Made by a program: the position numbers and the translations under genes
Shown: positions 1 through 52,177 of the stretch, piece after piece
Position numbering within the stretch: position 1 is the stretch's first letter
Layout of the letters: the number at the start of each line of letters is the position of its first letter
Virus record (IMG/VR): IMGVR_UViG_2563366958_000018
Strand: one strand, 5' to 3'
From: a virus
Lineage: Duplodnaviria > Heunggongvirae > Uroviricota > Caudoviricetes
Length of the DNA: 52,177 nucleotides
Notes under the pieces: generated by a model
Database searches by the model: none
The model's input: only the letters and a program-made list of their open reading frames with translations
What the model was told of the DNA's origin: nothing

Positions 1-3000
1 ATGCCTGTCGACTTTCTAACCTCTGACCAAAAACAGAATTACGGTTGTTATGCTGCAGAACCTAATGACGTGCAACTGGCGCGCTATTTTCATCTTGATG
101 AACGGGATCTGGCCTTCATTAACCAACGACGGGGCAAACATAATAGGCTGGGCATTGCGCTTCAGCTCACCACAGCCCGTTTTCTGGGAACATTTCTGAC
201 GGATTTAACTCAGGTTCTGCCTGGTGTTCAACATTTTGTCGCGGTACAGCTTAATATCCACCGTCCAGAAGTTCTCTCCCGCTATGCTGAACGGGACACT
301 ACCCTTAGAGAACATACTGCATTAATTAAGGAATATTACGGCTATCATGAATTTGGTGATTTTCCATGGTCTTTCCGCCTGAAGCGTCTGCTATATACCC
401 GGGCGTGGCTCAGTAATGAGCGACCGGGTCTGATGTTTGATTTTGCCACTGCATGGTTGCTTCAAAATAAGGTATTACTGCCCGGAGCAACCACACTAGT
501 ACGTCTCATCAGTGAAATTCGTGAAAGGGCAAATCAGCGGCTGTGGAAAAAGCTGGCCGCACTGCCGAACAAATGGCAGGCAGCTCAAGTGATGGAGCTT
601 CTGGTCATTCCGGAAGGTCAGCGTGTATCAGCACTGGAACAGTTGAAAAAAGGCCCTGTTACAGTCAGTGGACCTGCGTTTAATGAGGCGCTGGAACGAT
701 ATATCCGATTACGAAGTCTTGAGTTTTCCCGACTGAACTTTTCCGGTCTGCCTGCCATTCAACTGCGTAATCTGGCTCGTTATGCTGGCATGGCGTCGGT
801 AAAATATATCGCTCGAATGCCACAGCAGAGAAAGCTTGCTGCACTTACTGCATTCGTTAAAGCACAGGAAATAACGGCATTAGACGATGCCGTTGATGTG
901 CTTGATATGCTAATTCTGGACATTATCCGCGAAGCAAAGAAAACCGGGCAAAAAAAAAGACTCAGGACACTGAAAGATCTTGATCAGGCCGCATTGTTAC
1001 TGGCGCGGGCATGTGCATTGTTGCTGGATGATAATACAGATGTCCCAGATCTCAGGCAGGTTATCTTCAAGTGCGTACCCAAAAACAGACTGGCAGAATC
1101 TGTAAGCAAGGTTAATGAACTTGCTCGTCCACAGAACAATAATTTCCATGACGAAATGGTTGAGCAGTACGGTCGGGTTAAACGTTTTCTTCCGGCGGTG
1201 TTGCGGGACCTGCATTTCCGTGCGGCACCGGCAGGTGAACATGTACTGGCTGCGATTCATTATCTGGCAGAACTGAATGGTTCGAAAAAGCGCATCCTTG
1301 ATGATGCGCCTGAACATATTATCACCGGTCCCTGGAAACGCCTCGTATACGATGCGGAGGGACGGATACAGCGTGCAGGTTATTCACTATGTTTGCTGGA
1401 ACGCCTTCAGGATGCACTGCGCCGCCGGGACATCTGGCTTGAAAACAGTGATCGCTGGGGAGATCCTCGCGAGAAGTTGTTGCAAGGTGAAGAGTGGCAG
1501 ACTCAGCGTATTCCTGTCTGTCGGGCACTGGGACATCCTGTCGATGGACGTAAAGGTGTGCAACAACTGGCTATTCAGCTGGATGAGACCTGGAAAGCCG
1601 TGGCATCACGATTTGAAAAGAATGCGGAAGTTCATATCTGTAATGAAGGTAAATATCCATCCCTGACTATCAGTTGTCTGGAGAAACAGGAAGAGCCACC
1701 ATCATTGCTTCGTCTAAATAATCGGATCAAACAGCTACTCCCACCGGTAGATTTAACGGAACTGTTACTTGAGATAGATGCCCAGACAGGATTTACACAT
1801 GAGTTTGCGCATGTCAGTGAATCTGGTGCTCGAGCGCAAGATTTGCACATCAGTTTATGTGCGGTATTGATGGCTGAAGCCTGTAATATCGGACTGGAGC
1901 CGCTGATAAAGCACAATATACCAGCACTGACCCGCCATCGGCTCAGTTGGGTGAAACAGAATTACCTTCGTGCAGAAACGCTGGTCAGCGCCAATGCCCG
2001 CCTGGTTGATTTTCAGTCCACACTGGAGCTTGCTGGTCGTTGGGGAGGTGGAGAAGTGGCATCAGCTGACGGCATGCGCTTTGTCACACCAGTGAAGACC
2101 ATCAACTCAGGATCTAACAGAAAATATTTTGGTTCTGGACGAGGCATCACCTGGTATAACTTCGTATCTGATCAGTACTCTGGGTTCCATGGCATTGTGG
2201 TACCCGGTACATTACGGGATTCGATTTTTGTACTGGAAGGACTTCTTGAGCAGCAGACAGGGCTGAATCCAGTTGAAATCATGACAGACACTGCGGGTAG
2301 CAGCGATATTATTTTCGGTCTGTTCTGGCTACTGGGGTATCAGTTTTCCCCCCGGCTTGCCGATGCAGGTGAGGCGGTGTTCTGGCGGGTGAATAAATCG
2401 GCAAACTACGGAGTACTGGATAAGTTGGCCCGAGGATATGCAGATCTGTCAAAAGCGGAGAGTCAGTGGGATGAGATGATGCGAACCGCTGGTTCGCTGA
2501 AGTTGGGTACAATTCATGCGTCAGAACTCATTCGCTCTTTACTGAAAAGCTCGCGCCCATCAGGACTGGCACAGGCAATTATGGAAGTAGGGCGTGTAAA
2601 CAAAACGCTATATCTCCTCAATTATATTGATGATGAAGATTATCGTCGGCGGATCCTGACGCAGCTTAATCGAGGAGAAGGCCGCCACGCTGTGGCTCGT
2701 GCGATTTGTTACGGACAACGCGGAGAGATCAGAAAGCGTTATCGTGAAGGGCAGGAAGATCAACTGGGGGCGCTGGGCCTGGTTACTAATGCAGTGGTTC
2801 TGTGGAACACGCTCTATATGGAGGAAGCGTTGAGCTGGATGCGCCGTAATGGCGAAGAAATTATAGATGAAGATATCGCTCGGCTATCTCCCCTGATGCA
2901 CGGGCATATCAATATGTTGGGCCATTATACATTCACGTTGCCAGAGGATATTTTAAAAGGGGAACTGAGAGCTCTAAATTTAAATATAAACAACGAATTA

Positions 3001-3009
3001 TCTCCTTAA
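1..3009 (+). CDS. tnpA: Tn3-family transposase TnpA (Tn1000/gamma-delta-like), 1002 aa
   Basis: Full-length ORF starting MPVDFLT; conserved Tn3-family TnpA blocks (RPGLMFD, GGGEVASADGMRFV, LSPLMHGHINMLGHY); stop codon lies inside the terminal IR as in Tn3-family elements. Confidence 0.9.
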   Translation: MPVDFLTSDQKQNYGCYAAEPNDVQLARYFHLDERDLAFINQRRGKHNRLGIALQLTTARFLGTFLTDLTQVLPGVQHFVAVQLNIHRPEVLSRYAERDTTLREHTALIKEYYGYHEFGDFPWSFRLKRLLYTRAWLSNERPGLMFDFATAWLLQNKVLLPGATTLVRLISEIRERANQRLWKKLAALPNKWQAAQVMELLVIPEGQRVSALEQLKKGPVTVSGPAFNEALERYIRLRSLEFSRLNFSGLPAIQLRNLARYAGMASVKYIARMPQQRKLAALTAFVKAQEITALDDAVDVLDMLILDIIREAKKTGQKKRLRTLKDLDQAALLLARACALLLDDNTDVPDLRQVIFKCVPKNRLAESVSKVNELARPQNNNFHDEMVEQYGRVKRFLPAVLRDLHFRAAPAGEHVLAAIHYLAELNGSKKRILDDAPEHIITGPWKRLVYDAEGRIQRAGYSLCLLERLQDALRRRDIWLENSDRWGDPREKLLQGEEWQTQRIPVCRALGHPVDGRKGVQQLAIQLDETWKAVASRFEKNAEVHICNEGKYPSLTISCLEKQEEPPSLLRLNNRIKQLLPPVDLTELLLEIDAQTGFTHEFAHVSESGARAQDLHISLCAVLMAEACNIGLEPLIKHNIPALTRHRLSWVKQNYLRAETLVSANARLVDFQSTLELAGRWGGGEVASADGMRFVTPVKTINSGSNRKYFGSGRGITWYNFVSDQYSGFHGIVVPGTLRDSIFVLEGLLEQQTGLNPVEIMTDTAGSSDIIFGLFWLLGYQFSPRLADAGEAVFWRVNKSANYGVLDKLARGYADLSKAESQWDEMMRTAGSLKLGTIHASELIRSLLKSSRPSGLAQAIMEVGRVNKTLYLLNYIDDEDYRRRILTQLNRGEGRHAVARAICYGQRGEIRKRYREGQEDQLGALGLVTNAVVLWNTLYMEEALSWMRRNGEEIIDEDIARLSPLMHGHINMLGHYTFTLPEDILKGELRALNLNINNELSP

Positions 3010-3042: not shown

Positions 3043-3843
3043 GATCTTTACGAGGTTGACGTAATAGTCATGGGGTAAGTTTGTCATGGTGATAGTTCCC
3101 TTAAAGGTTAAGGATACTCACCACCGTCTGGTTCCAATCATTGGGTGGTGAGACGTACAGGGTTGGAACTACCGGTCACCATGGAATCCGGCGAGTCTTA
3201 CGACTCCCCCGCACGCCCCACCATAATTTGGGTGTAGCAGTGCTTTACGCATAAAAAAACCGCTAACGCGGTATGCGCCATGATGATTATCGGGGTTCCA
3301 ATCCCGACCGTAGATTTTGCTACGGCTCGGAAAGTGTCCACCAATGGCGCATTCATGTCAATACGGCGGGATTTTAACAGAGACAACCACATAGCGTGGG
3401 TTTATTGGTAGGCAGAAACAAAAAAACCGCCCTATTGAGGACGGTTCTTTCGTGCTGATCGGATTCGCGGTCCTTTCAGCATAACGTCGTTGTATAAACA
3501 ACCACGCAAGCACAAGCAGCAAGTTAATTTTACCCAAAAGGTAATAATAGTCCACTATTATGCTTCAAAAAATTGTGGTTCTTGTTGTGCCTGCAAACTC
3601 ACAGATTGTGGGTAGGTTACTGATTTTGTGAAAATAAACGAGTTTTTTCGTTTAATTTCTTTCCTATTACTAATCTTAAAATAATCGTAAAATACCTGTG
3701 GACCTTCCCGCCGATTCGCACCCGGGCACCGACTTTAGGGGAGGATTCTCCGTTGCCGTACATGCAAGCACAAGCAGCCGTGCTTGCTCTCGCGTTGTTT
3801 TCGTCGGTGGGGATGCCGTGAAACGGCCTGTAAGGGCCATACA

Positions 3844-3966
3844 ATGAAAAAATACTGTATGTGTATTTTTATCGTTGTTACTGGGGCTTTGTTTACGCCA
3901 CATGGGGAGGGTTGGAAGATTACTGATAACGCTCTGAATGTGACGATAAACATTAGCAGCAAGTAG
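3844..3966 (+). CDS. Small hydrophobic ORF (40 aa, MKKYCMCIFIVVTGALF...), hypothetical
   Basis: ATG with weak upstream purine tract; single hydrophobic segment; followed directly by a strong hairpin plus T-run. Confidence 0.2.
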   Translation: MKKYCMCIFIVVTGALFTPHGEGWKITDNALNVTINISSK

Positions 3967-3971
3967 CGATT

Positions 3972-3995
3972 AGGCCCCTTCGGGGGCCTTTTTTA
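3972..3995 (+). terminator. Rho-independent terminator
   Basis: AGGCCCC-TTCG-GGGGCCT stem followed by TTTTTT. Confidence 0.5.
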
Positions 3996-4508: not shown

Positions 4509-5177
4509 TTACGCGGCAGTAGTCAGAGCCTCAAGCTGGTTGATAATCCCCTGAATAACGTCGTCTGCCTTTTTGCGTGGCGCAACGTATGAGCATTCAA
4601 TGAGGCTTAAGCCCTTATCCTGAGCTTTGCTCAGAGCTGGCTTGTGGGGAATGTACTTATCGACAACAAAGTATGGCGTATTAGCTAGGTACTCTTGGGC
4701 TTCAATGTAGTCGGCTTCGTTTTCAGCCGCGCCTGAGAACACCATGCAAATTTTCTTGATTGGCACACCCTTTTTAACGATGCCGTGAGCTGTGTTAACG
4801 GTGGTTTCTAGGTCATCGGTAGAGAATCTGGTTGGCAAAATAACCATATCCAGAAATTCAGAGAGCTTCGGTACTGATTCAGATGCGTAGGCACCGCCAT
4901 CGACGATAACCAGGTCGTATACTTCTGATTCGATGATTTTCTGGACTTGTGATGGCGTGCCGCACGGCTGCGCCGCGATTGCAGGTTCGATATTGTTGGC
5001 CATTCTGCGTTGTACCCAACGCGTTACCGTTCCGTTAAGCACATCCATATCGATCAGGCATACATTCCAGCCGGCCTTTGCATAAGCAACTGCTAAAGCA
5101 CGGGCAATTGTTGATTTGGTTACGCCGCCTTTTCCGTTGAAAATACCTACAGAGATAGTCATTTGTCGAGACTCCAT
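4509..5177 (-). CDS. ParA/ParF-type partition ATPase (small ParA)
   Basis: Deviant Walker A (GIFNGKGGVTKST) near N-terminus, 222 aa; alternative start at 5162 (MTISV...) has the better RBS. Confidence 0.85.
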   Translation of the reverse strand: MESRQMTISVGIFNGKGGVTKSTIARALAVAYAKAGWNVCLIDMDVLNGTVTRWVQRRMANNIEPAIAAQPCGTPSQVQKIIESEVYDLVIVDGGAYASESVPKLSEFLDMVILPTRFSTDDLETTVNTAHGIVKKGVPIKKICMVFSGAAENEADYIEAQEYLANTPYFVVDKYIPHKPALSKAQDKGLSLIECSYVAPRKKADDVIQGIINQLEALTTAA

Positions 5178-15000: not shown

Positions 15001-15076
15001 GGCCCCTTAGCTTAGTGGTTAGAGCAGGCGACTCATAATCGCACGGTCATCGGTTCAAATCCGGTAGGGGCCACCA
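15001..15076 (+). tRNA. tRNA with CAU anticodon, most similar to tRNA-Ile2 (ileX-type, lysidine-dependent AUA decoder); could also be a Met tRNA
   Basis: Cloverleaf folds: acceptor GGCCCCT/AGGGGCC, anticodon loop CUCAUAA, T-loop TTCAAAT, 3' CCA encoded. Confidence 0.85.
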
Positions 15077-15383: not shown

Positions 15384-15971
15384 ATGGAGGCAATTGCATT
15401 GTTTAATCTGATTTATGCAGATCCCCCCTGGGAATACAAAGATAAGTGTAAGGATGGGAATCGTGGAGCTGGTTTTAAGTATCCAACGATGAAAGCTGAG
15501 GATATTGCTCGTATTCCTGTCTGGCAGCTTGCTAATCCTGAATCGTGTTTGTTGGCCATGTGGTGGGTTCCGACTCAGCCAGAAGAAGCGTTGCTGGTGG
15601 TGAAAGCATGGGGATTCAGGCTTATGACCATGAAGGGCTTCACATGGAACAAATGTGGTAGCCGACAACCAGATAAGCTGGTGATGGGGATGGGGCATAT
15701 GACTCGTGCAAACAGTGAAGATTGCTTGTTTGCGGTAAAAGGCAAATTGCCGACCCGCCTTGATGCGGGGATCATTCAGTCGTTTACATCGCCTCGTCTG
15801 GAGCATTCTCGGAAGCCTGATGTGGTTCGTGACAAGCTGGTAAGGCTGTTAGGTGATGTTCCTCGTATTGAGCTGTTTGCTCGCGGTGATTTACCTGATG
15901 GTTGGCATGGCTGGGGCAACCAGTGCAATGGAGGTATCCAGTTGCATGATGCTCTCTGGCAAGTGGCATAG
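15384..15971 (+). CDS. MT-A70-family N6-adenine DNA methyltransferase (orphan)
   Basis: Catalytic DPPW motif (IYADPPWEY), 195 aa; no adjacent restriction endonuclease. Confidence 0.8.
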   Translation: MEAIALFNLIYADPPWEYKDKCKDGNRGAGFKYPTMKAEDIARIPVWQLANPESCLLAMWWVPTQPEEALLVVKAWGFRLMTMKGFTWNKCGSRQPDKLVMGMGHMTRANSEDCLFAVKGKLPTRLDAGIIQSFTSPRLEHSRKPDVVRDKLVRLLGDVPRIELFARGDLPDGWHGWGNQCNGGIQLHDALWQVA

Positions 15972-16923: not shown

Positions 16924-17113
16924 TTTGTTCTGGTTTCAGCTTCCAATAAGAGATTTGTTGGTATTTCTGGCTGGCGCTTACGTCTGGAGAAAAGCGAAAG
17001 ATACCTCGTTATCTTTGAGGTTTGTCTTAGCTATATCGGTAGGAACCGCGCTGGGTACGGCGTATCTCTTGATATTACTGGAGGTATTCATTGAAAAATG
17101 GATAGTTTCATGA
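16901..17113 (+). CDS. Small membrane protein (70 aa)
   Basis: Two hydrophobic helices. Confidence 0.3.
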   Translation: MIVLMPSDLFWFQLPIRDLLVFLAGAYVWRKAKDTSLSLRFVLAISVGTALGTAYLLILLEVFIEKWIVS

Positions 17114-17262
17114 ATGGTCTTGGCATTTTTCTGATGGTTGTGGCTGTGTGTTTTTGTATCTCGCTGGTGGTTATTGCTGGTGTCCTGTGGCGCATCTTAG
17201 TGGCGCAGAGAGCTTTTCGGCTTAAGCGGGAGCAAATGCGCCTTGATTTCTATCGAAAGTAA
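17110..17262 (+). CDS. Small single-TM protein (50 aa), below the ORF-track size cut-off
   Basis: ATGA overlap with upstream ORF; hydrophobic helix; terminator follows at about 17271-17300. Confidence 0.3.
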   Translation: MNGLGIFLMVVAVCFCISLVVIAGVLWRILVAQRAFRLKREQMRLDFYRK

Positions 17263-17309
17263 CTCTTACAGCCTCGCGTGTCGCGGGGCTTTTATTTTCA
17301 GGTGATGTT

Positions 17310-17720
17310 ATGGAAAAGAAAGAAGATAAACCGATTGCCATTGGTGCAGAGTCTGTTCCGTTTAAGTTTGAATTATCCCAACTGGTAACAATGCGTATCA
17401 GTGAAGAGTGGGGAGAAGTTCAAGCCCGTGCTCAGTATGCAAATGGCGAAAACCAGTATTTGATTCACTATCAGGCGGCTGATGGTCGTGCTACCACAGA
17501 GTGGTTCGGTGAATCGATGTTGATTGCGATGGAAGATGATCGTTATCCAGGCTGCCCTGTTTTTGCCTGTGTTGATTTGCCAGAAGGCGCGGTACTTGAA
17601 GACGACAAAGAAGAATGCTCGTCTGATGGCGAACTTGTCATTACTGGAATCGTTGATGGTAAGCCGGAATACTCTCGTATTGAGGTAAATAACGGCCGCA
17701 TCCGTTTGATCCCTGCGTAA
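17310..17720 (+). CDS. Hypothetical acidic protein (136 aa)
   Basis: ORF followed by a 10-bp stem hairpin plus T-run. Confidence 0.45.
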   Translation: MEKKEDKPIAIGAESVPFKFELSQLVTMRISEEWGEVQARAQYANGENQYLIHYQAADGRATTEWFGESMLIAMEDDRYPGCPVFACVDLPEGAVLEDDKEECSSDGELVITGIVDGKPEYSRIEVNNGRIRLIPA

Positions 17721-17954
17721 CGCATTACAGCAGCTCTTGTGCTTACCAGGGGCTGCGATAATGCGCAAACCAAAGCTGCCTCATTAACTCCAGCTCGCTG
17801 TGGAGTTAATGCTGGTGGCTTTTTTATTACTGGAAGGTGGGCGACCGCCGTCAGTTGCGACCTGACGACAGTCATTCATACCCACAGGGTGCCGTGGATA
17901 CAAACCGAGGCCCACTTGCTTGCACAAGCGAGGGGATTTTAGCGGATAAACGGC

Positions 17955-18578
17955 ATGACAAAACATCTTAATGTGGTTTCTTTACCACTTTCTGTGTTGA
18001 TTGGTTATGAAAAGAACGCTCGCACACACTCCGTGGAGCAGGTAGATCAGATTATTGCCAGCATACAGGAGTACGGATGGACTAATCCGATCCTGATAGA
18101 CGAGAACAACGTTGTAATTGCTGGTCATGGTCGAATTGCTGCGGCCACTCAGTTGGGGATGGATGATGTTCCCTGCATTGTTCTGGCTGGGCTAACGGAG
18201 AATCAGAAGAAGGCATATCGTCTGGCCGACAACCGTATTCCGCTGAATGCTGGTTGGGATGAAGAGTTGTTAAGCGCGGAGCTTGCAGATCTTGCGGCCG
18301 ATGATTTTGCTCTGGACTCAATTGGTTTTACTCAGCGCGAACTGGATAACTTATTGAGTGCGGCGGTCTACGATGACACAGAGGGTATGGATATCCCATT
18401 TGAGAAGGATGAGGCCAAATCAGGCGTAAAAGTTCAGTACCTGTCATTTGGAGGTCATAAAATCCCGGCAACGGATGAGGAAGCGGATCGTTTTGACTGC
18501 GCGGTGTCTCGTTATGTTGATGATAATGGCAGCTATATCGGATTTGTATCCGCATTGCTGGCTGGGGAGGTGTGCTGA
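17955..18578 (+). CDS. ParB/Srx-like nuclease-domain protein (207 aa)
   Basis: N-terminal ParB-type fold with GHGR arginine motif (VIAGHGRIAAA); paralogue of 21244-21834. Confidence 0.7.
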   Translation: MTKHLNVVSLPLSVLIGYEKNARTHSVEQVDQIIASIQEYGWTNPILIDENNVVIAGHGRIAAATQLGMDDVPCIVLAGLTENQKKAYRLADNRIPLNAGWDEELLSAELADLAADDFALDSIGFTQRELDNLLSAAVYDDTEGMDIPFEKDEAKSGVKVQYLSFGGHKIPATDEEADRFDCAVSRYVDDNGSYIGFVSALLAGEVC

Positions 18579-19951
18579 TGCTTCACCTCAATTACGACAT
18601 AACGCACCTACGCGGCGCGGAATATAACCCGCGTTTTATCGGTGAGGATGATCTTGCGAGGCTGGCGGAAAGCGTCAGGGAGCTGGGGCTTGTGAAGCCA
18701 TTGATAGTGCGCGGCGATTTGCTGGTGGCGGGACACCAAAGGACGAAGGCGCTACGTAAGTTGGGAATAACGCGTGCTGCGGTGTATGTGTTGCCCTGTG
18801 AAACGACGGTATACGACGAAGTACGGTTTAACCAACTGCATAACGGAACGGATTTTGATAGCGGAGATGAGCGTTGCAGGGTGTCCGGTCTGGAAGATAA
18901 GCATGGTTTTGTTCAGGTATCGGCAAGCCAGATCTCAGGCAATATGCGCGCGAAAATGGCATATGTTCGAAAGAACATAGCGGAACTGGTTATCAAGTAT
19001 GGTCCGTGGGGTGGTTGTGTTGCTACTCAGTCTGGTGAGGTTATTCACTGTGCTCAGTATGCATTAGCAGCGAAAATGACGCGCACACCGCTAACGGTGT
19101 TTGTGATCCCTGATGTTGAGAAGGAAAAATACCAAAGTTATCTGAATAAAACTTATGGTGTATTTGAGTATTCTCATCTGGAGAAAACAACATACATCCA
19201 GACGTATGCGCAGCTTATGCGGTTGCGTAATGGTGGCAGCCTGAAATCAAATCTGTATGAGTCGTTGATCCTCCCGATCGTTGCCAAGACGCCAAGAGGA
19301 ATTGATTTTGGTTCGGGGCAGGGAGACTACGCGCGAATGCTCAGGGCAAAGGGATATAACCTGCATGATCTTGAGCTTTTTCGCCGTAAGGGCGCTGGAA
19401 ACACTCTGGATAGGGCTGCAACAAACCGAATGATTGATACGCTGGTGGACGACTTAAAAACGCGAGGGCGTTACGACTACGTGATTTGCGATAGCGTTTT
19501 GAACTCGGTCGATAGTGTCGAGGCTGAATGGTCCGTTCTGACGGTTCTGAAAGGCCTGTGTAAAGCTGGTGGGTCAATATTCTTTTCTGGTCGTAGCCGT
19601 GGAGAGCTGGAAACAGTCCTGAAGCAAACACAAGCGGCGAGTTCCAAAAGCCGGCTTTATTTTATTGATCATAACGGTTTTACCGCGTTGTACCGGAAGG
19701 GGCACTGGTTTTACCAGAAGTTTCACTCTGATGATGAAGTGAAGCAGTTGTGTCGTGTACATGGTTTCAGGATTAAGCGGTCAATATTCAACTGTAATAG
19801 CTGGTATTTGCACGTCATTAACGATGATTCCCTTAGTTGGGCGAGTCTGGAGAAAGCTGTTCGTTTTGAGTTTGAGTTGCCGTTGCCTGGTGGTTCAACA
19901 ATCGGACGATCTGATGATGTGCTGGCGGCTTTCCGGCCGTTGATTAAGTAG
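18578..19951 (+). CDS. ParB/Srx-like N-terminal domain fused to a class I SAM-dependent methyltransferase domain
   Basis: N-terminal LVAGHQRTKA ParB motif; C-terminal motif I GIDFGSGQGDYA and acidic post-I motif (YVICDSVLN); no DPPY/NPPY motif seen. Confidence 0.6.
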   Translation: MLHLNYDITHLRGAEYNPRFIGEDDLARLAESVRELGLVKPLIVRGDLLVAGHQRTKALRKLGITRAAVYVLPCETTVYDEVRFNQLHNGTDFDSGDERCRVSGLEDKHGFVQVSASQISGNMRAKMAYVRKNIAELVIKYGPWGGCVATQSGEVIHCAQYALAAKMTRTPLTVFVIPDVEKEKYQSYLNKTYGVFEYSHLEKTTYIQTYAQLMRLRNGGSLKSNLYESLILPIVAKTPRGIDFGSGQGDYARMLRAKGYNLHDLELFRRKGAGNTLDRAATNRMIDTLVDDLKTRGRYDYVICDSVLNSVDSVEAEWSVLTVLKGLCKAGGSIFFSGRSRGELETVLKQTQAASSKSRLYFIDHNGFTALYRKGHWFYQKFHSDDEVKQLCRVHGFRIKRSIFNCNSWYLHVINDDSLSWASLEKAVRFEFELPLPGGSTIGRSDDVLAAFRPLIK

Positions 19952-19967
19952 TGTGTAGGAGGCGCTG

Positions 19968-20687
19968 GTGGCTGACAGAATTGAGATAAAGATGGATTTT
20001 TCTTCTCAGGATATTCAACGACAACTCCAGCGCCTTGAAGAACGCGAATTGCCGTTCGCAATGGCGCTTGCGGCAACCAGAACGGCAAAGGCTTCTCAGG
20101 CTGCGATTAAGAATGAAATTAATCGGGTATTTGACAGGCCCACGCCGTGGATTCAGAACTCTACTTACGTTTTGGCCGCAAAGAAGAGTGATCCTACAGC
20201 CATTGTGTATGCTCGTGAATGGGGAGGAACGCCAGCCCCTGTAACGTTGACTCCGCAAATCGAAGGTGGCCAACGACAGTACAAACGCTCAGAAGGGGCG
20301 CTAAGGGCTGGTGGATATTTGCCTAACGGCTGGCAGCTTGCTCCTGGTCCCGGCGCAAAGCTGGACAAATACGGGAATATTTCGCGGGGGCAATTACAGC
20401 AGGTCTTATCTGGCCTAAGAGTTCAGCGAGATGCGCATCAAAATCGCCGTCAGGGCAAGCCTACGGAGTTTTTTGTTGTTCGACCTGGTACAAGTAACCC
20501 GCTTCAACCAGGCGTCTGGCAGCGCGTTGGGCGGCGTCCTACGTTGATCCTTACGTTTATCCAGCAACCTAACTATTCGCAGCGTCTTGATTGGCATGGC
20601 GTGGCGCTGCGTGCTGGTGAGGATGCGTTTGCTGATGAAGTCACAAAGGCTATTGATGACATTCTTTCTAAGACCTTCTCTCGTTAA
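19968..20687 (+). CDS. Hypothetical protein (239 aa, GTG start)
   Basis: AGGAGG RBS upstream. Confidence 0.45.
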   Translation: MADRIEIKMDFSSQDIQRQLQRLEERELPFAMALAATRTAKASQAAIKNEINRVFDRPTPWIQNSTYVLAAKKSDPTAIVYAREWGGTPAPVTLTPQIEGGQRQYKRSEGALRAGGYLPNGWQLAPGPGAKLDKYGNISRGQLQQVLSGLRVQRDAHQNRRQGKPTEFFVVRPGTSNPLQPGVWQRVGRRPTLILTFIQQPNYSQRLDWHGVALRAGEDAFADEVTKAIDDILSKTFSR

Positions 20688-20879
20688 TCATCGTGTGGTT
20701 GATGGTGTTGTTATGCAGAGTGTATTCACTGTGTTCTGTAGCGTCGCTCGCTGGCTGTCTGTGGGGGAGCACGAGCATCGTTTCATCGTCCGGCAGAATT
20801 GGGTCCTTCTGGCCAAAAGCGTTGGATGCGGGTCATTCGAACCCCGATATTCGGCTAGCTAAACGTGAAAAAAGTTAGG

Positions 20880-21243
20880 TTAAAAGTTGCGGTAAAAGAA
20901 ATTTACTCATCTCATTGAAAAATATCGGGAAAACGTGATTTTTTCTGTATTTGTGCTGGTAAAAAGAAAGTGGAAAATTTTCTTTTAGATCATCAAGATA
21001 CGCGCAGATCTTTAACCAATGTGATGTTGTTCTGATAAAAATCGTTATAAATCATGCAAATACATCCAATCTTTTAACCAAAACACCATCGCAAGATCCT
21101 TTTTACTTATAAAAACTTAATAAAATCAGATAATTATGCTGGTTTGTGTGATTTTTCATGAGTAAAAAGATCGTCATTTTTCTCTTTTAGTATCAATAAG
21201 TTAAACAGTTTTCTTTAACCTGTTGTGTTATGGCGGTTAAAAA
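20880..21243. promoter_or_regulatory. AT-rich intergenic region upstream of the packaging genes; candidate cos/pac and late regulatory region
   Basis: Three TCTTTAACC-type repeats (about 21009, 21070, 21212) and four AGATC sites in about 200 bp. Confidence 0.3.
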
Positions 21244-21834
21244 ATGGCTCTAAAAATCGAATATTTACCAGTCGGTAAGTTGCTCAGATATGCCAAAAAT
21301 TCACGGACTCATTCAGATGAGCAAGTTGAACAGTTGGTGAACAGTATCCGTGAGTTCGGTTTCACTAATCCTGTGCTGATCGATGAAAAGAATGAACTGA
21401 TTGCGGGGCATGGGCGGCTTGCAGCAGCCGAAATTCTGGAAATGGATAAAGTTCCGGCGATTCGGTTGAGTAACCTTTCTGAAAAACAGAAGAAGGCTTA
21501 CAGGATTGCAGATAACAAGCTGGCCTTAAATGCTGGCTGGGATATGCAGCTTCTGGCCGAAGAAGTCAAAGAGTTAATGGATGATGATTTTGATATTGAT
21601 CTGCTTGGGTTTAATGATGCAGAGCTTGACGAAATGTTAAGCGATGAACAGCCGCAGGAAGAAGACGATAATTCTTCCCCTGTTGTTCAAATTAAGTACC
21701 TGGCTATTGATAAAGAACGTATTCCCGCGACGGATATGGAAATTGCATTGTTGCTGGATGTTTATCGTCAGTACCACGACGCGCATGAAACGCATGAGGG
21801 ATTTGTTCAGTATCTTGCTAATGGTTGCAAGTAA
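21244..21834 (+). CDS. ParB/Srx-like nuclease-domain protein immediately upstream of terminase small subunit
   Basis: LIAGHGRLAAA motif; clear paralogue of 17955-18578. Confidence 0.7.
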   Translation: MALKIEYLPVGKLLRYAKNSRTHSDEQVEQLVNSIREFGFTNPVLIDEKNELIAGHGRLAAAEILEMDKVPAIRLSNLSEKQKKAYRIADNKLALNAGWDMQLLAEEVKELMDDDFDIDLLGFNDAELDEMLSDEQPQEEDDNSSPVVQIKYLAIDKERIPATDMEIALLLDVYRQYHDAHETHEGFVQYLANGCK

Positions 21835-22385
21835 TGGCCATCGTCAGTAAGTCAGAGTTTGCCCGCCGGAAAGGTATTTCTCCGGCAATGGTTACGAAGC
21901 TCTGTTGTTCCGGTCGCATTCCAGTGCTGAAAAGCGGCAAGCTGGATTTTGATAAAGCCAGTGCGGCTTATGAAGCGAGCCGACAGGTTGGTCGTGAGGT
22001 ATCTGCTGAAAATGGAAAAAGAGGGCATGGGATATCTTCGGAACAACCAGAGTTACCCGCTGATGATGCCGGATTAGCTGGTGGTACTTCCGGTGTTGCG
22101 GTGCAATTCAACAAGGCTAAGACCGCAGAAAAAATTTATCAGGCAAAGCTGAAACGCCTTGAATTTGAAGAAAAGGAAGGCTCTCTCATCGCTAAAGATG
22201 CGGTCAGGGATGATGCATTTCTGGCAGCTAATGAATTGCGTAGCCGCTTATTTAGTATTGCTCCAAGAGCAGCTCCCCGTTGTGAAGGCAAAACAGCCAG
22301 GGAGATCGAGCGCATTATTGAAGACGAGATTAATTTTGCGCTTCAGGCGCTCCAGGAATCCCGATTTATTAAGCAGGAAGAATAA
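21834..22385 (+). CDS. Terminase small subunit (Nu1-like)
   Basis: N-terminal HTH (SKSEFARRKGISPAMVTKL) and position directly upstream of the large subunit; TAATG coupling. Confidence 0.6.
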   Translation: MAIVSKSEFARRKGISPAMVTKLCCSGRIPVLKSGKLDFDKASAAYEASRQVGREVSAENGKRGHGISSEQPELPADDAGLAGGTSGVAVQFNKAKTAEKIYQAKLKRLEFEEKEGSLIAKDAVRDDAFLAANELRSRLFSIAPRAAPRCEGKTAREIERIIEDEINFALQALQESRFIKQEE

Positions 22386-22390
22386 ACCTC

Positions 22391-24247
22391 ATGGGCGAAA
22401 CAGTATGGAGCACCGCTTTTTTCCGTGCGCTTCGCCCTAAATCACGGCTAACTGTTTCCGAATGGGCTGATAAGTATCGTCATGTAGCGCCGGGAACGTC
22501 TCCAGAGCCAGGGCCGTGGCGTACAAGCCGAGTGCCATATTTGCGTGAACCAATGGATGTTATTGGTGACGCTGATACAGAAACAGTAGTGATGCAATGT
22601 AGCTCGCAAATTGGTAAATCCGAATTACAGCTAAATGTTATGGGTTACTTTGCAGATCAGGAGCCATCTCCTCAGTTGATGATTTATCCAACGGTAGAGG
22701 CGGCTGAGGCTTTTTCAAAAGAGCGTATTGATCCGACGTTCAAATATTCCCCTGGTTTGAAACACAAGCTGCATGAAGGGAAAGAGGGGCGCGGTGCAGC
22801 CAAAAAGTCCAGCACGACTATACGTATGAAGCATTACGCTGGTGGATATATAGCACTTGTTGGTGCTAATTCCCCAGCAGGTCTTGCATCCAGGCCAATT
22901 CGAATACTGTTAGCTGATGAGATTGATCGTTACGGTGTGACGCAGGAGGGCGACCCACTAAAACTAGGTATTCAGCGTACTACCAACTTTCATAATCGTA
23001 AGAAAGTTTTTGTTTCTACTCCTGTTTTGGAGGAAACAAGCAAAATCCACAAGTGGTTTAAGCTCTCCGATCAGCGTTACTACCATGTTCCTTGCCCATG
23101 TTGTGGCACCATGCAGGTGATGAAATGGTCGCAAGTCAGATGGGATAAGAGCGATTCAGGTGAGGCGTTACCGGAAACGGCCAGATATGAGTGCTGTGAG
23201 TGCGGCGGGATTATGCGCGGATCTGGTAAACCAGACGTTGATTGGTTGGCGAAGGGGGTATGGATAGCTGAACATACTGGAGTTAAAGGTATTGTTGGTT
23301 TTCATATTAACAGTCTTTACTCCCCGTGGGTTGCATTGTCAGAGCTGGTTGAAGAATTTACGGAAGCAACCAGAAACCGCGATAAAAATGGATTAATGGA
23401 GTTTATTAACCTTAAGCTGGGTGAGCCATGGAAAGAGGATGCTAAAGACGATATCGATCCTGAATACTTGTTGCAACGCAGAATAAGGTTTGAAGAGTTT
23501 TTACCAGATGATGTTTTATTGTTAAGTGCTGGTGTTGACGTACAGGACACGTATTTAGTTTGTGAATTGGTCGGTTGGGGAAAAGGTAAGGAGTCATGGG
23601 GGATAGAATATAAAATATTCCCAGGTGATCCCGCACAAGATGTTGTCTGGAAACAACTTGATGAATACTTACTCCGTAGCTGGTCATTCCGTGACGGTCG
23701 AAAATTACAGATTTCTTCCGTTTGTATTGACTCTGGTGGGCATTTTACGACAGAGGTATATCGCTTTACTAAGCCGAGAGAATCAAGGCGAATATACTCT
23801 ATCAGGGGGCGTGGTGGGGTAGGTTTACCATTTATAGGAAAGCCAAGTAATAATAACCGTGTGGGTGCTATGTTGTTTAATTTGGGGGTTGATGATGGTA
23901 AAGGGACCATCATGGCAAGAATTAAACTACATGATCCTGGTCCTGGTTATATGCATTTCCCATTAGATTCTGACAGAGGATATGATACCGAATACTTTAA
24001 AGGATTATTATCAGAGAAAAAAATATTTGAATATAAAAATGGGCAGACAAAAGAAAAGTGGGTGAAAGTCTACGAGCGTAACGAGCCTCTTGATTGCCGT
24101 AACTATGCAACTGCCGCGATGGAAATTCTGAACCCTAATTTTAACTGGCTTGCCGAACAGGAAATGCGAGGTAATGTGTATGTGCAGAACTCGTCAGGTA
24201 TACGTAGAAGACGCCGTAGAGTTATAAGTAAAGGCGTAACCATATAG
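22391..24247 (+). CDS. Terminase large subunit (lambda gpA family)
   Basis: 618 aa; gpA-like layout with PCPCCG zinc motif and C-terminal nuclease domain. Confidence 0.9.
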   Translation: MGETVWSTAFFRALRPKSRLTVSEWADKYRHVAPGTSPEPGPWRTSRVPYLREPMDVIGDADTETVVMQCSSQIGKSELQLNVMGYFADQEPSPQLMIYPTVEAAEAFSKERIDPTFKYSPGLKHKLHEGKEGRGAAKKSSTTIRMKHYAGGYIALVGANSPAGLASRPIRILLADEIDRYGVTQEGDPLKLGIQRTTNFHNRKKVFVSTPVLEETSKIHKWFKLSDQRYYHVPCPCCGTMQVMKWSQVRWDKSDSGEALPETARYECCECGGIMRGSGKPDVDWLAKGVWIAEHTGVKGIVGFHINSLYSPWVALSELVEEFTEATRNRDKNGLMEFINLKLGEPWKEDAKDDIDPEYLLQRRIRFEEFLPDDVLLLSAGVDVQDTYLVCELVGWGKGKESWGIEYKIFPGDPAQDVVWKQLDEYLLRSWSFRDGRKLQISSVCIDSGGHFTTEVYRFTKPRESRRIYSIRGRGGVGLPFIGKPSNNNRVGAMLFNLGVDDGKGTIMARIKLHDPGPGYMHFPLDSDRGYDTEYFKGLLSEKKIFEYKNGQTKEKWVKVYERNEPLDCRNYATAAMEILNPNFNWLAEQEMRGNVYVQNSSGIRRRRRRVISKGVTI

Positions 24248-43599: not shown

Positions 43600-44472
<873 letters not shown>

Positions 44473-51034: not shown

Positions 51035-52177
51035 TTATGGTCTGCTTTTCTGTGCCAGCTTATCAGCACATGTTTTTATCAGATCCTGTAGTGTCTTGGC
51101 TGGCAGGTTTGCATCCAGTACGCTGAGTATGCTGTTGTGATCAGCTTGGTCGACTACTTTGCCTGTCGGTGGTAGTAGCTTGAGCTGAGGATTCAGGTTT
51201 TCGTCAAAGCTGATAAGTGCTCTGGCGTTTCTGAGCAGATCAAGAAGTAAGGCTGATATCACATTTTCCTGAGTCATTGCTGGCAGATTTAGCGCCGCTT
51301 TGGTTTTCCCTGTTGCCTTGTCAAACGCCTTGATTAGTTCCTTCCTGTAGTTCGGTTCCGTTAATAGCCGATTATGCTCTGTTGCCGCGCGGATAATCGT
51401 TTTTTCCTGGTACAGTCGTTTAGCCAGATCACGCTCGTACTGTGTTTTTAACACGCTGCTGATAGCGTTAAAGGCTTCAATGTAGGCCAGCTTGATATCT
51501 TTCACGCTTGGACCGTCGATGCTCTCCATGAGCAAGGTAAATCCGTCTTTTGTCATGCGATAGATTGTTATTTCGCGGTCGCTTCCTTCCAGCGGTCGTT
51601 GCTCTTTAAAGAAGTGACGCGCCGCAGCCGTGCGAGGAATGCGTAGCGCATCGATGGCCATAACGATGGAATTGTTTGTGGTGCTGAATGCTTGGGCAAC
51701 ATCGGCTGAGGTTGTGAGTGGCTCGTTGTTGCACACTTTAATGTAAAACATCGGTTTGGCGTTGAGCGTATCGACAACCTCACGAGCATTGTTTGGCGAG
51801 ACGGTTACGGTCGCGGCCGTTTGCGCGTTCTGGCTGAAATAGCAGTCTTCCAGCCGTTCGAATACATCCCACGCCTGATCGGTTTCGAGCATTTTGGCGT
51901 GACGTGCAGCCCCGCGTTCTGTCCAGAGAATGAGGGAGCGGGCATTTTTACCAACTAACCCGATTGTTTCAGGTCTGTTCTTGAACTCGCGTAATTCGTT
52001 TTTTTCAATTTTAAAGTAATGCTTTCCGGCTATGAATCGCGTCGTGTTGTTCAGAAAGTTATCAGAAATGTTTTTGATTTTTGTTCCGTATAACTGCGCC
52101 AGAAGTTCAGTTGTAATAACGGGGATCTGGTTATGCAAGATAGGCTGTAGGGTGTTAACGGTCGGAAGCGTTTTCAT
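51035..52177 (-). CDS. Phage antirepressor (AntA/ORF6N-type N-terminal domain, Rha-like central region)
   Basis: 380 aa; N-terminal ITTELLAQLYGTKIKNISDNFLNN...RFIAGKHYF; start codon is the last three bases of the window so the true start may lie beyond it. Confidence 0.7.
   Translation of the reverse strand: MKTLPTVNTLQPILHNQIPVITTELLAQLYGTKIKNISDNFLNNTTRFIAGKHYFKIEKNELREFKNRPETIGLVGKNARSLILWTERGAARHAKMLETDQAWDVFERLEDCYFSQNAQTAATVTVSPNNAREVVDTLNAKPMFYIKVCNNEPLTTSADVAQAFSTTNNSIVMAIDALRIPRTAAARHFFKEQRPLEGSDREITIYRMTKDGFTLLMESIDGPSVKDIKLAYIEAFNAISSVLKTQYERDLAKRLYQEKTIIRAATEHNRLLTEPNYRKELIKAFDKATGKTKAALNLPAMTQENVISALLLDLLRNARALISFDENLNPQLKLLPPTGKVVDQADHNSILSVLDANLPAKTLQDLIKTCADKLAQKSRP

Follow-up and report, generated by a model that had tools for sequence, protein, structure and literature searches.

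We analysed a 52,177-nucleotide stretch of viral DNA (IMG/VR record IMGVR_UViG_2563366958_000018, Caudoviricetes; hereafter the window), in which two adjacent genes on the same strand, at positions 17955-19951, encode a short acidic protein of the ParB/Srx type, here called ParB1, and a larger protein in which a second ParB/Srx domain is fused to a methyltransferase domain. It is well supported that the two proteins constitute a two-subunit, nucleotide-binding, S-adenosylmethionine (SAM)-dependent methyltransferase that is under strong selection, is unrelated to plasmid partition and lies in an accessory region upstream of the packaging genes. A first-pass annotation made from the sequence alone had recognised ParB-type domains with GHGR and GHQR motifs in both genes, and this was borne out by the open reading frames (ORFs), the motifs and the profile searches: by profile match and by the GxxRxxA form of Box II, both proteins are assigned to the ParB/Srx superfamily (PF02195).

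ParB1 (17955..18578, + strand) is a short, strongly acidic ParB/Srx-type protein of 207 aa with an isoelectric point (pI) of 4.3. Its GHGR motif (residues 57-60, at 18123-18134) is part of the Box II sequence GHGRIAA, and the N-terminal ParB domain is followed by a Box III-like helix, 'QKKAYRLADN', an acidic 'DFxLDxxGF' linker and a C-terminal motif of ~45 aa (IPxTxxE...YVxxNG...GFV). The match to Pfam ParB_N (E=8.8e-5, 22.9 bits) falls slightly below the 26.3-bit cutoff, and that to PHROG 620 ('ParB-like') reaches E=1.2e-73. ParB1 also matches the first ~150 residues of ParB-fused DNA methylases (phrog_498, E=2e-50; PADLOC MTase_II, E=3.7e-37). Like ParB3, a second short ParB protein of the window that is described below, it aligns to no more than positions ~7-158 in the methylase model of 436 positions and ~31-183 in that of 633 positions; there is no methyltransferase domain in the chain, and the assignment of either protein as a ParB-fused type II DNA methylase (PHROG 498; PADLOC PDLC03229) was rejected. 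Judged by these profile matches, ParB1 is the detached equivalent of the N-terminal ~150 residues of the ParB-fused type II DNA methylases.

The ParB-methyltransferase fusion (18578..19951, + strand) is a basic protein of 457 aa (pI 9.1) and a member of PHROG 5475, a family of unknown function. Its start could be placed at GTG 18572 or ATG 18578, and the latter is most likely, because the PHROG profile is aligned from residue 3, RefSeq annotates a gene of 1374 nt, and ATG 18578 overlaps the stop codon of ParB1 as TGATG with a GGAGG 9 nt upstream. The match to PHROG 5475 (E=9.1e-265; residues 3-459 on profile positions 1-457 of 458) is full-length and collinear over the ParB-N, middle and methyltransferase domains. 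In Pfam, Methyltransf_23 scores 31.5 bits, above its 27-bit cutoff, and ParB_N scores 24.3 bits, below its cutoff of 26.3; at the level of the family, Methyltransf_23 is found in all 45 homologues examined and ParB_N in 44 of them (E<=1e-3). Against the PDB, the family profile matched the N-domain of Spo0J (E=1.5e-8) and UbiG (E=1.3e-6), and the fusion itself matches PHROG 620 at E=2e-14. An AlphaFold2 model built on the 45 homologues was compact, with a predicted local distance difference test (pLDDT) score of 93.5 and a predicted template modelling (pTM) score of 0.89.

The N-terminal domain of the fusion (residues 1-95, 18578..18862, + strand) is of the ParB/Srx type, with a predicted ParB-CTPase fold. 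Its Box II, AGHQRTKA, contains GHQR at residues 52-55 (18731-18742) and aligns to GERRFRA of Spo0J; AGHQR is invariant in the 45 homologues, as is a DExRFNQLHNGTD sequence at the position of Box III. The middle domain (residues 96-235, 18863..19282, + strand) is also conserved, its invariant residues including R131, W144, G145, H157, Q160, Y161, Y193, Q208, Q212 and R215. In the AlphaFold2 model this domain repeats the order of secondary-structure elements of residues 1-90 (E,H,E,E,H,E,H), and the hidden Markov model (HMM) of the short ParB proteins gave weak matches to it in a consistent register (best E=6e-4); comparison of residues 1-95 with residues 96-200 by hhalign detected no internal duplication of the ParB domain. 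The middle domain is possibly a second, degenerate Srx-like domain, a weak possibility that we do not claim.

The C-terminal domain (residues 236-457, 19283..19948, + strand) is assigned to the class I (Rossmann-like) SAM-dependent methyltransferases by its motif I, the acidic residue at the end of beta2 and the seven-stranded fold. Motif I, IDFGSGQGDY, lies within it (GSGQG, residues 245-249, at 19310-19324; GIDFGSGQG, residues 241-249), followed by the acidic residue of motif II, E266, and a motif IV region, CDSVLNSVD. Invariant in the family are D243, G245 and G247 of motif I, E266 and D305, together with many Arg, Asn, Gln and His residues. The first-pass annotation had described a SAM-binding domain lacking the DPPY, NPPY and DPPW motifs of the amino-methyltransferases and the PCQ motif of the C5-methyltransferases, and this description stood up to the motif scan and to Pfam. 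Profile and structure comparisons likewise turned up no well-characterised DNA methyltransferase family in which to place the domain, which leaves the earlier reading standing. By sequence, the domain is a class I SAM methyltransferase that lies outside all of the DNA amino- and C5-methylase families and groups with the Methyltransf_11/12/23/25 families. The nearest structures are those of uncharacterised small-molecule enzymes, ToxA-like N-methyltransferases, Trm9, METTL6, UbiG and a protein-lysine methyltransferase.

That the two genes belong together is apparent from their conservation as a pair. Our neighbourhood sample comprised 77 viral loci with fusion homologues at 33-99% identity. Searching with the short-ParB HMM, we found that 71 of 74 viral loci carry a full-length short ParB gene directly upstream of the fusion and in the same orientation; the other three loci are all truncated by a contig end. 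The same arrangement occurs in bacterial genomes, for instance in a Bradyrhizobium prophage. Two proteins of ~659 aa, P0412 and P0413, are natural single chains in which a complete short ParB protein is followed by a complete ParB-methyltransferase. The charges of the two proteins are opposite throughout the family, with a median pI of 4.56 for the short ParB (4.30 for ParB1) and 8.79 for the fusion (9.10 in the window). The translational coupling, the kept gene order, the natural fusions and the opposite charge indicate that the two proteins work as one unit. The two genes are thus a strictly conserved, translationally coupled and sometimes fused acidic/basic two-protein unit, in agreement with their earlier reading as a functional pair.

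The family is large and widespread. A word-indexed search returned more than 739 homologues of the fusion, of constant length and full-length at 33-99% identity, while an exhaustive profile search (E<=1e-30) gave 308 clusters at 50% identity, nearly all of them 450-490 aa long. Hosts include Enterobacterales, Alphaproteobacteria, Bacillota, Planctomycetota, Myxococcota, Chloroflexota, Chlorobiota, Bacteroidota and Kiritimatiellia, and the module occurs across bacterial genomes of at least 8 phyla, integrated prophages among them. Among cultured phage records it is present in only 7 of 50,697. The alignment of the fusion retains 73 invariant columns across 45-99% identity, and the ratio of nonsynonymous to synonymous substitution (dN/dS) is 0.035 for the fusion and 0.056 for the other gene of the pair. 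Given the full-length homologues at 33-99% identity, the invariant columns and the dN/dS of 0.035, the signal is far beyond chance.

The window genes are further members of a catalogued, functionally uncharacterised family. A fusion of a ParB-CTPase domain to Methyltransf_23 (PF13489) has been reported as a phage- and prophage-enriched architecture of unknown role (Le and colleagues, PNAS 2025, PMC12704722); its architecture is the same as that of the window fusion and is equivalent to PHROG 5475. One such 'Mtase23' protein, from a metagenome-assembled genome of Alphaproteobacteria, bound ATP in the DRaCALA ligand-binding assay, according to the same paper. Its Box II, GHQRTKA, is identical to that of the window fusion, and it is on this motif that its membership of the same family rests. 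The searched parts of the paper and its supplements contain no mention of an obligate short-ParB partner, of natural fusions, of the gene c150 described below or of a terminase-proximal position, and give no substrate, partner or genomic rule for the Methyltransf_23 fusion. Our search of the literature found no functional study of the ParB plus Methyltransf_23 architecture and no substrate assigned to the family. Nor did the search turn up an earlier description of the rules that hold for the module as a whole, namely the acidic protein as obligate partner, the naturally fused chains, c150 as a third gene and the location close to the terminase.

Several known systems resemble the module in part. 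The ParB-fused N6/N4 methyltransferases (PHROG 498; PADLOC PDLC03229) are alike in joining a ParB N-domain to a SAM methyltransferase and in lying in prophages beside the terminase genes; a ParB-adenine-methylase of this kind from a Bacillus cereus prophage, Bce_0392, is encoded next to the small terminase and nicks DNA non-specifically (PMC3592412, PMC5512222). They differ in having a beta-class domain with DPPY-type catalysis, whereas the class I domain of the window fusion is unrelated and of the small-molecule type; moreover, the ParB-plus-linker module typical of those enzymes is encoded in the window as a protein by itself, and the ParB domain that the fusion contains is a different one. 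A second parallel is the phage ParB-like protein that activates a neighbouring DNA thymine dioxygenase, 5mYOX (PNAS 2026, PMC13229309), in which a stand-alone ParB-like protein is the obligatory partner of an adjacent enzyme that modifies DNA after replication and is often encoded near terminases. That enzyme is an iron- and 2-oxoglutarate-dependent dioxygenase rather than a methyltransferase, and no 5mYOX or glycosyltransferase accompanies modules of the window type. The canonical CTP-dependent clamps ParB, Noc and KorB share with the module the fold predicted for its N-terminal domains, to which the Spo0J match belongs, and the GxxRxxA Box II. What the module proteins lack, compared with the clamps, is a helix-turn-helix (HTH), a C-terminal dimerisation domain, a ParA-interaction motif and a parA gene beside them, and the ligand reported for the Methyltransf_23 architecture (PMC12704722) is ATP, not the CTP of the clamps. 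Srx and SerK, discussed in the same paper, are enzymes with the ParB/Srx fold that use ATP without acting on DNA. In these the Srx-type fold binds ATP within an enzyme, and the compact model of the fusion would be compatible with such a role, but no specific resemblance in sequence was found, either to Srx with its GCHR motif or to SerK, and no substrate for phosphotransfer is evident. In a library of anti-phage defence models, only the ParB part of the type II methylase model was matched, and no defence or anti-defence family matched the methyltransferase domain or the 239-aa protein encoded downstream of it; NCBIfam gave only sub-cutoff matches to ParB and Noc. The non-specific adenine methylase M.EcoGII was dropped as a comparator, since its paper makes no mention of ParB.

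The genomic setting of the module is dominated by the packaging genes. In most loci a large terminase gene lies 1-3 kb downstream, of the Pfam families GpA, Terminase_6C or Terminase_3. In about two thirds of the viral loci (51/77), the fusion is followed by a third gene, c150, whose start codon usually overlaps the stop codon before it. It encodes a protein of 143-171 aa with Cys and His residues, in which W, HCxxC, YxCxV, NxH and TCRNxQ are invariant. Searches with this protein gave no family or fold match despite a model of pLDDT 96, and c150 is absent from the window and from the enterobacterial clade. No hypermodification genes recur near the module in the 77 viral loci, and it therefore appears self-contained. 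The cassettes around it vary. In the most distant clade (L069-L077; 33% identity, phages from gut metagenomes) the module is expanded, as at L070:5815-12499, where a stand-alone class I methyltransferase (Methyltransf_25/11), two short ParB proteins, the ParB-methyltransferase, a 167-aa protein, c150, an HTH small-terminase-like protein and an SNF2-family helicase precede a Terminase_3 large terminase. In the Bradyrhizobium prophage (L002:11054-17196), the stretch from the module to Terminase_3 holds an Amidoligase_2 gene, two genes for GGACT/AIG2 proteins and, on the opposite strand, a methyltransferase of the MTS type, a different accessory cassette in the same pre-terminase hotspot.

In the window, the fusion is followed by the gene for the 239-aa protein (19968-20687, + strand; pI 10.1), which the first-pass annotation had counted as part of the module. 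This part of the annotation did not hold. The gene stands beside the pair only in the 7 closest of the 77 viral loci, and its homologues (32-41% identity) are always found directly upstream of the Nu1/small terminase and gpA genes in lambda-like phages that lack the module. We therefore rejected it as a member of the module and assign it to the packaging end of the genome. The protein has no PDB or Pfam match; it belongs to PHROG 1924, whose label, 'minor tail protein', is not supported by a position before the terminase genes. The earlier interpretation as a whole thus holds for the two ParB genes, as paired proteins that are neither partition proteins nor of a DNA-methylase class, and fails for the 239-aa protein; the DNA-targeted or anti-restriction role that it proposed is one of several candidate roles.

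Downstream of this gene lies ParB3 (21244-21834, + strand), an acidic protein of 196 aa whose Box II is GHGRLAA and which the first-pass annotation had missed. It is a paralogue of ParB1, with 47% identity over the full length (BLASTP E=8e-62), and matches PHROG 620 at E=4.6e-75. Its 3' end overlaps by 10 nt the small-terminase ORF (21825-22385, a match to PHROG 57). ParB3 is related to the module and may act either with the methyltransferase or with the packaging genes. Two or three copies of the short ParB gene are also present in loci L060, L069-L077 and L120-L121. Between the 239-aa gene and ParB3, window positions 20870-21240 are AT-rich and non-coding; CTTTTAACC / GGTTAAAAG occurs there several times, in either orientation, and a 15-nt unit recurs about every 75 nt. 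The Yersinia phage records start and end near window 20831-20843. This stretch may be a cos, small-terminase-binding or late-promoter region.

As to what the enzyme does, we tentatively favour, at somewhat short of an even chance, a late-expressed, ATP-binding, two-subunit methyltransferase that acts on phage DNA by a non-canonical chemistry. ParB1 would be the small acidic ParB/Srx-fold partner subunit of this one enzyme, and in the basic second subunit an ATP-binding ParB/Srx domain and the conserved middle domain would be joined to a class I SAM methyltransferase that looks active. The complex would be made late in infection, as the position of its genes suggests, and its ParB-type nucleotide-gated modules would engage replicated phage DNA, as in the ParB-fused methylases and the ParB-activated thymine dioxygenases. 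Methylation of this DNA would follow, ahead of packaging, at a site that is neither N6-A nor N4-C nor C5-C, and would probably serve to escape host restriction or other DNA-sensing defences. DNA is proposed as the target because of the ancestry of ParB1, which is homologous to the N-terminal ~150 residues of the ParB-fused type II DNA methylases, because of the precedents for ParB-assisted DNA modification and because of the universality of the module across hosts. A bolder version is doubtful in its full detail: shortly before packaging, and in a reaction dependent on ATP, the complex may add to double-stranded phage DNA a methyl mark of a new kind. The methyl group would go to a ring nitrogen (for example N7-G, N3 or N1), to an exocyclic oxygen or onto the backbone phosphate, and the enzyme would be of a class of methyltransferase for which action on DNA has never been seen. 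Assisted in most lineages by c150 as a Cys/His beta-sandwich protein, the complex would represent a new, widespread and self-contained anti-restriction chemistry.

A number of observations weigh against the favoured reading, and most of them favour an alternative in which the same two-subunit, ATP-binding enzyme methylates a protein, an RNA (tRNA, for example) or a small molecule resembling a nucleotide, with the Srx-type domain supplying nucleotide binding or phosphotransfer rather than DNA targeting; a protein substrate could come from the host or be one of the phage's own packaging or virion proteins. Scanning ParB1 and the fusion by regular expression gave no [DNS]PP[YFWH], PCQ or ENV motif, and a Pfam scan of both proteins (E<=0.01) gave no DNA-methylase family and no PF00145; the positive control for this search was the gene for an MT-A70 family methyltransferase at 15384-15971 (+ strand), with its DPPW motif and PF05063 match (E=3e-23). 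With this gene, which lies 2 kb upstream of the pair, the element already has an adenine DNA methylase of the canonical type. The structures nearest to the methyltransferase domain, from the ToxA-like enzymes, Trm9 and METTL6 to UbiG and the protein-lysine methyltransferase, act on small molecules, tRNA or proteins, and the domain resembles them in a flat, unspecific way (10-18% identity). All three domains are packed compactly in the model, whose high pTM suggests that the ParB domain is integral to the enzyme and not a flexible DNA-loading arm. Srx and SerK (PMC12704722) provide the example of enzymes of this fold that use ATP but do not work on DNA. Beyond residue 95, ParB1 is very acidic and has no recognisable HTH, and it is therefore unlikely to be a DNA clamp on its own. 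Finally, late expression is read from gene position, and a scan of 17000-22500 found no promoter. Set against a non-DNA substrate are the correspondence of ParB1 to the N-terminal module of genuine ParB-DNA-methylase fusions, the basic character of the middle and methyltransferase domains (pI 9.1-9.3) and the position before the packaging genes, which is kept in phages of at least 8 phyla. Hosts of at least 8 phyla share few specific proteins, which speaks for a universal substrate, as DNA would be, more than for a protein particular to the host. On balance we consider a non-DNA substrate unlikely, but a serious contender.

The remaining alternatives are less probable. The ParB-like proteins could mark or process the region at which packaging is initiated, with the methyltransferase tuning the action of the terminase. 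Dam methylation controls the cleavage of P1 pac, and HNH nucleases assist terminases of the HK97 type. The short distance from the module to the large terminase gene, the overlap of ParB3 with the small-terminase ORF, the AT-rich repeat region separating the module from ParB3 and the ability of the ParB domains of ParB-methylase fusions to nick DNA would all suit such a packaging accessory. The module is, however, found alongside three unrelated terminase families and in so few of the cultured phage records that it must be dispensable for packaging in general; and since the region from lysis to terminase genes is a common site of accessory genes, position alone is weak evidence. We regard this role as improbable. 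It is more improbable still that the pair is a non-catalytic sensor or regulator, in which binding SAM would be all that the methyltransferase-like domain does, and binding ATP all that the ParB domain does, to gate some late function: the motif IV region, R339, D364, R373, W377, Q380, H383 and E431 are invariant across homologues of 33-99% identity, so that conservation extends far past the cofactor site, as is typical where there is a pocket for a substrate. A role in partition, as centromere-binding proteins of a phage-plasmid, could be read from the ParB_N domain and from database annotations such as 'chromosome (plasmid) partitioning protein', but is effectively refuted. Scores against TIGR00180 were 30.5, 16.4 and 40.1 bits compared with a cutoff of 58.45, the proteins have no HTH or dimerisation domain, and the pair occurs in integrated prophages without parA, always beside terminase genes. 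The nearest ParA gene (4509-5177) has its own small partner gene and lies 13 kb away, so that the ParB-like proteins of the module are not the partition system. Here, too, the first-pass annotation had judged correctly.

The window represents an Escherichia coli phage-plasmid whose relatives are ~48 kb long, the window being ~4 kb longer. A plasmid from E. coli ATCC 25922 matches the module region at 99.4% identity, as do about 60 further plasmids; for the Yersinia phages vB_YpM_39/41/44 and the Escherichia phage vB_EcoM-613R2 the identity is 98-99%. Yersinia phage HQ103, an unrelated 32-kb phage, was rejected as a relative. The gene pair is present in 71 of 5426 complete E. coli genomes (about 1.3%), and 75 of its 76 places are plasmids. 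Locally, the lysis genes are followed by a tRNA-Met gene (CAT anticodon; 15001-15076, + strand), the MT-A70 methylase, small ORFs, ParB1 and the ParB-methyltransferase, and then by the 239-aa protein, an AT-rich gap of 557 nt, ParB3, the small terminase, a gpA-type large terminase and the portal gene.

Other features of the window were also recorded. In the 235-nt gap between a 136-aa gene and ParB1, a perfect 9-bp stem, TTAACTCCA ... TGGAGTTAA, encloses an 8-nt loop (17786-17811, + strand), with a run of T 11 nt further on; it may be a terminator or a regulatory hairpin ahead of the module. A second hairpin, at 17270-17290, is strong and terminator-like. Promoter and terminator scans of 17000-22500 gave none exceeding the shuffled expectation, and the Rfam scan gave no match in the module region. 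Elsewhere, Rfam matches above the gathering score were obtained for C4 antisense RNA (the P1/P7-type immunity RNA; 3141-3228, - strand), isrK (3253-3326, - strand) and ryfA (3698-3994, + strand), which adjoin an ORF6N/Rha antirepressor-like gene (51035-52177); this juxtaposition suggests a P1-like antisense immunity circuit. The window also contains a gene for a Tn3-family transposase (1-3009, + strand; DDE_Tnp_Tn3, E=3e-149) and one for a TEM beta-lactamase of 286 aa (43600-44460, - strand; E=9e-191 to TEM), and this copy of the phage-plasmid thus bears an antibiotic-resistance gene.

Proteins with the ParB fold are now seen as nucleotide-gated modules of general use, which phages couple to enzymes that modify DNA. 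Fusions to Methyltransf_23 had been counted before but never explained, and they appear here as one half of a conserved two-protein unit. This unit is unusually tractable, as it is carried by the ~48-kb plasmid of E. coli ATCC 25922, by similar E. coli plasmids and by culturable Yersinia phages. If its target is not DNA, it would represent a widespread late phage function of another kind. If phage DNA is modified, the mark would be made by a class of methyltransferase with no known action on DNA, and would be one that the motif callers used for methylomes and REBASE-style annotation would miss.

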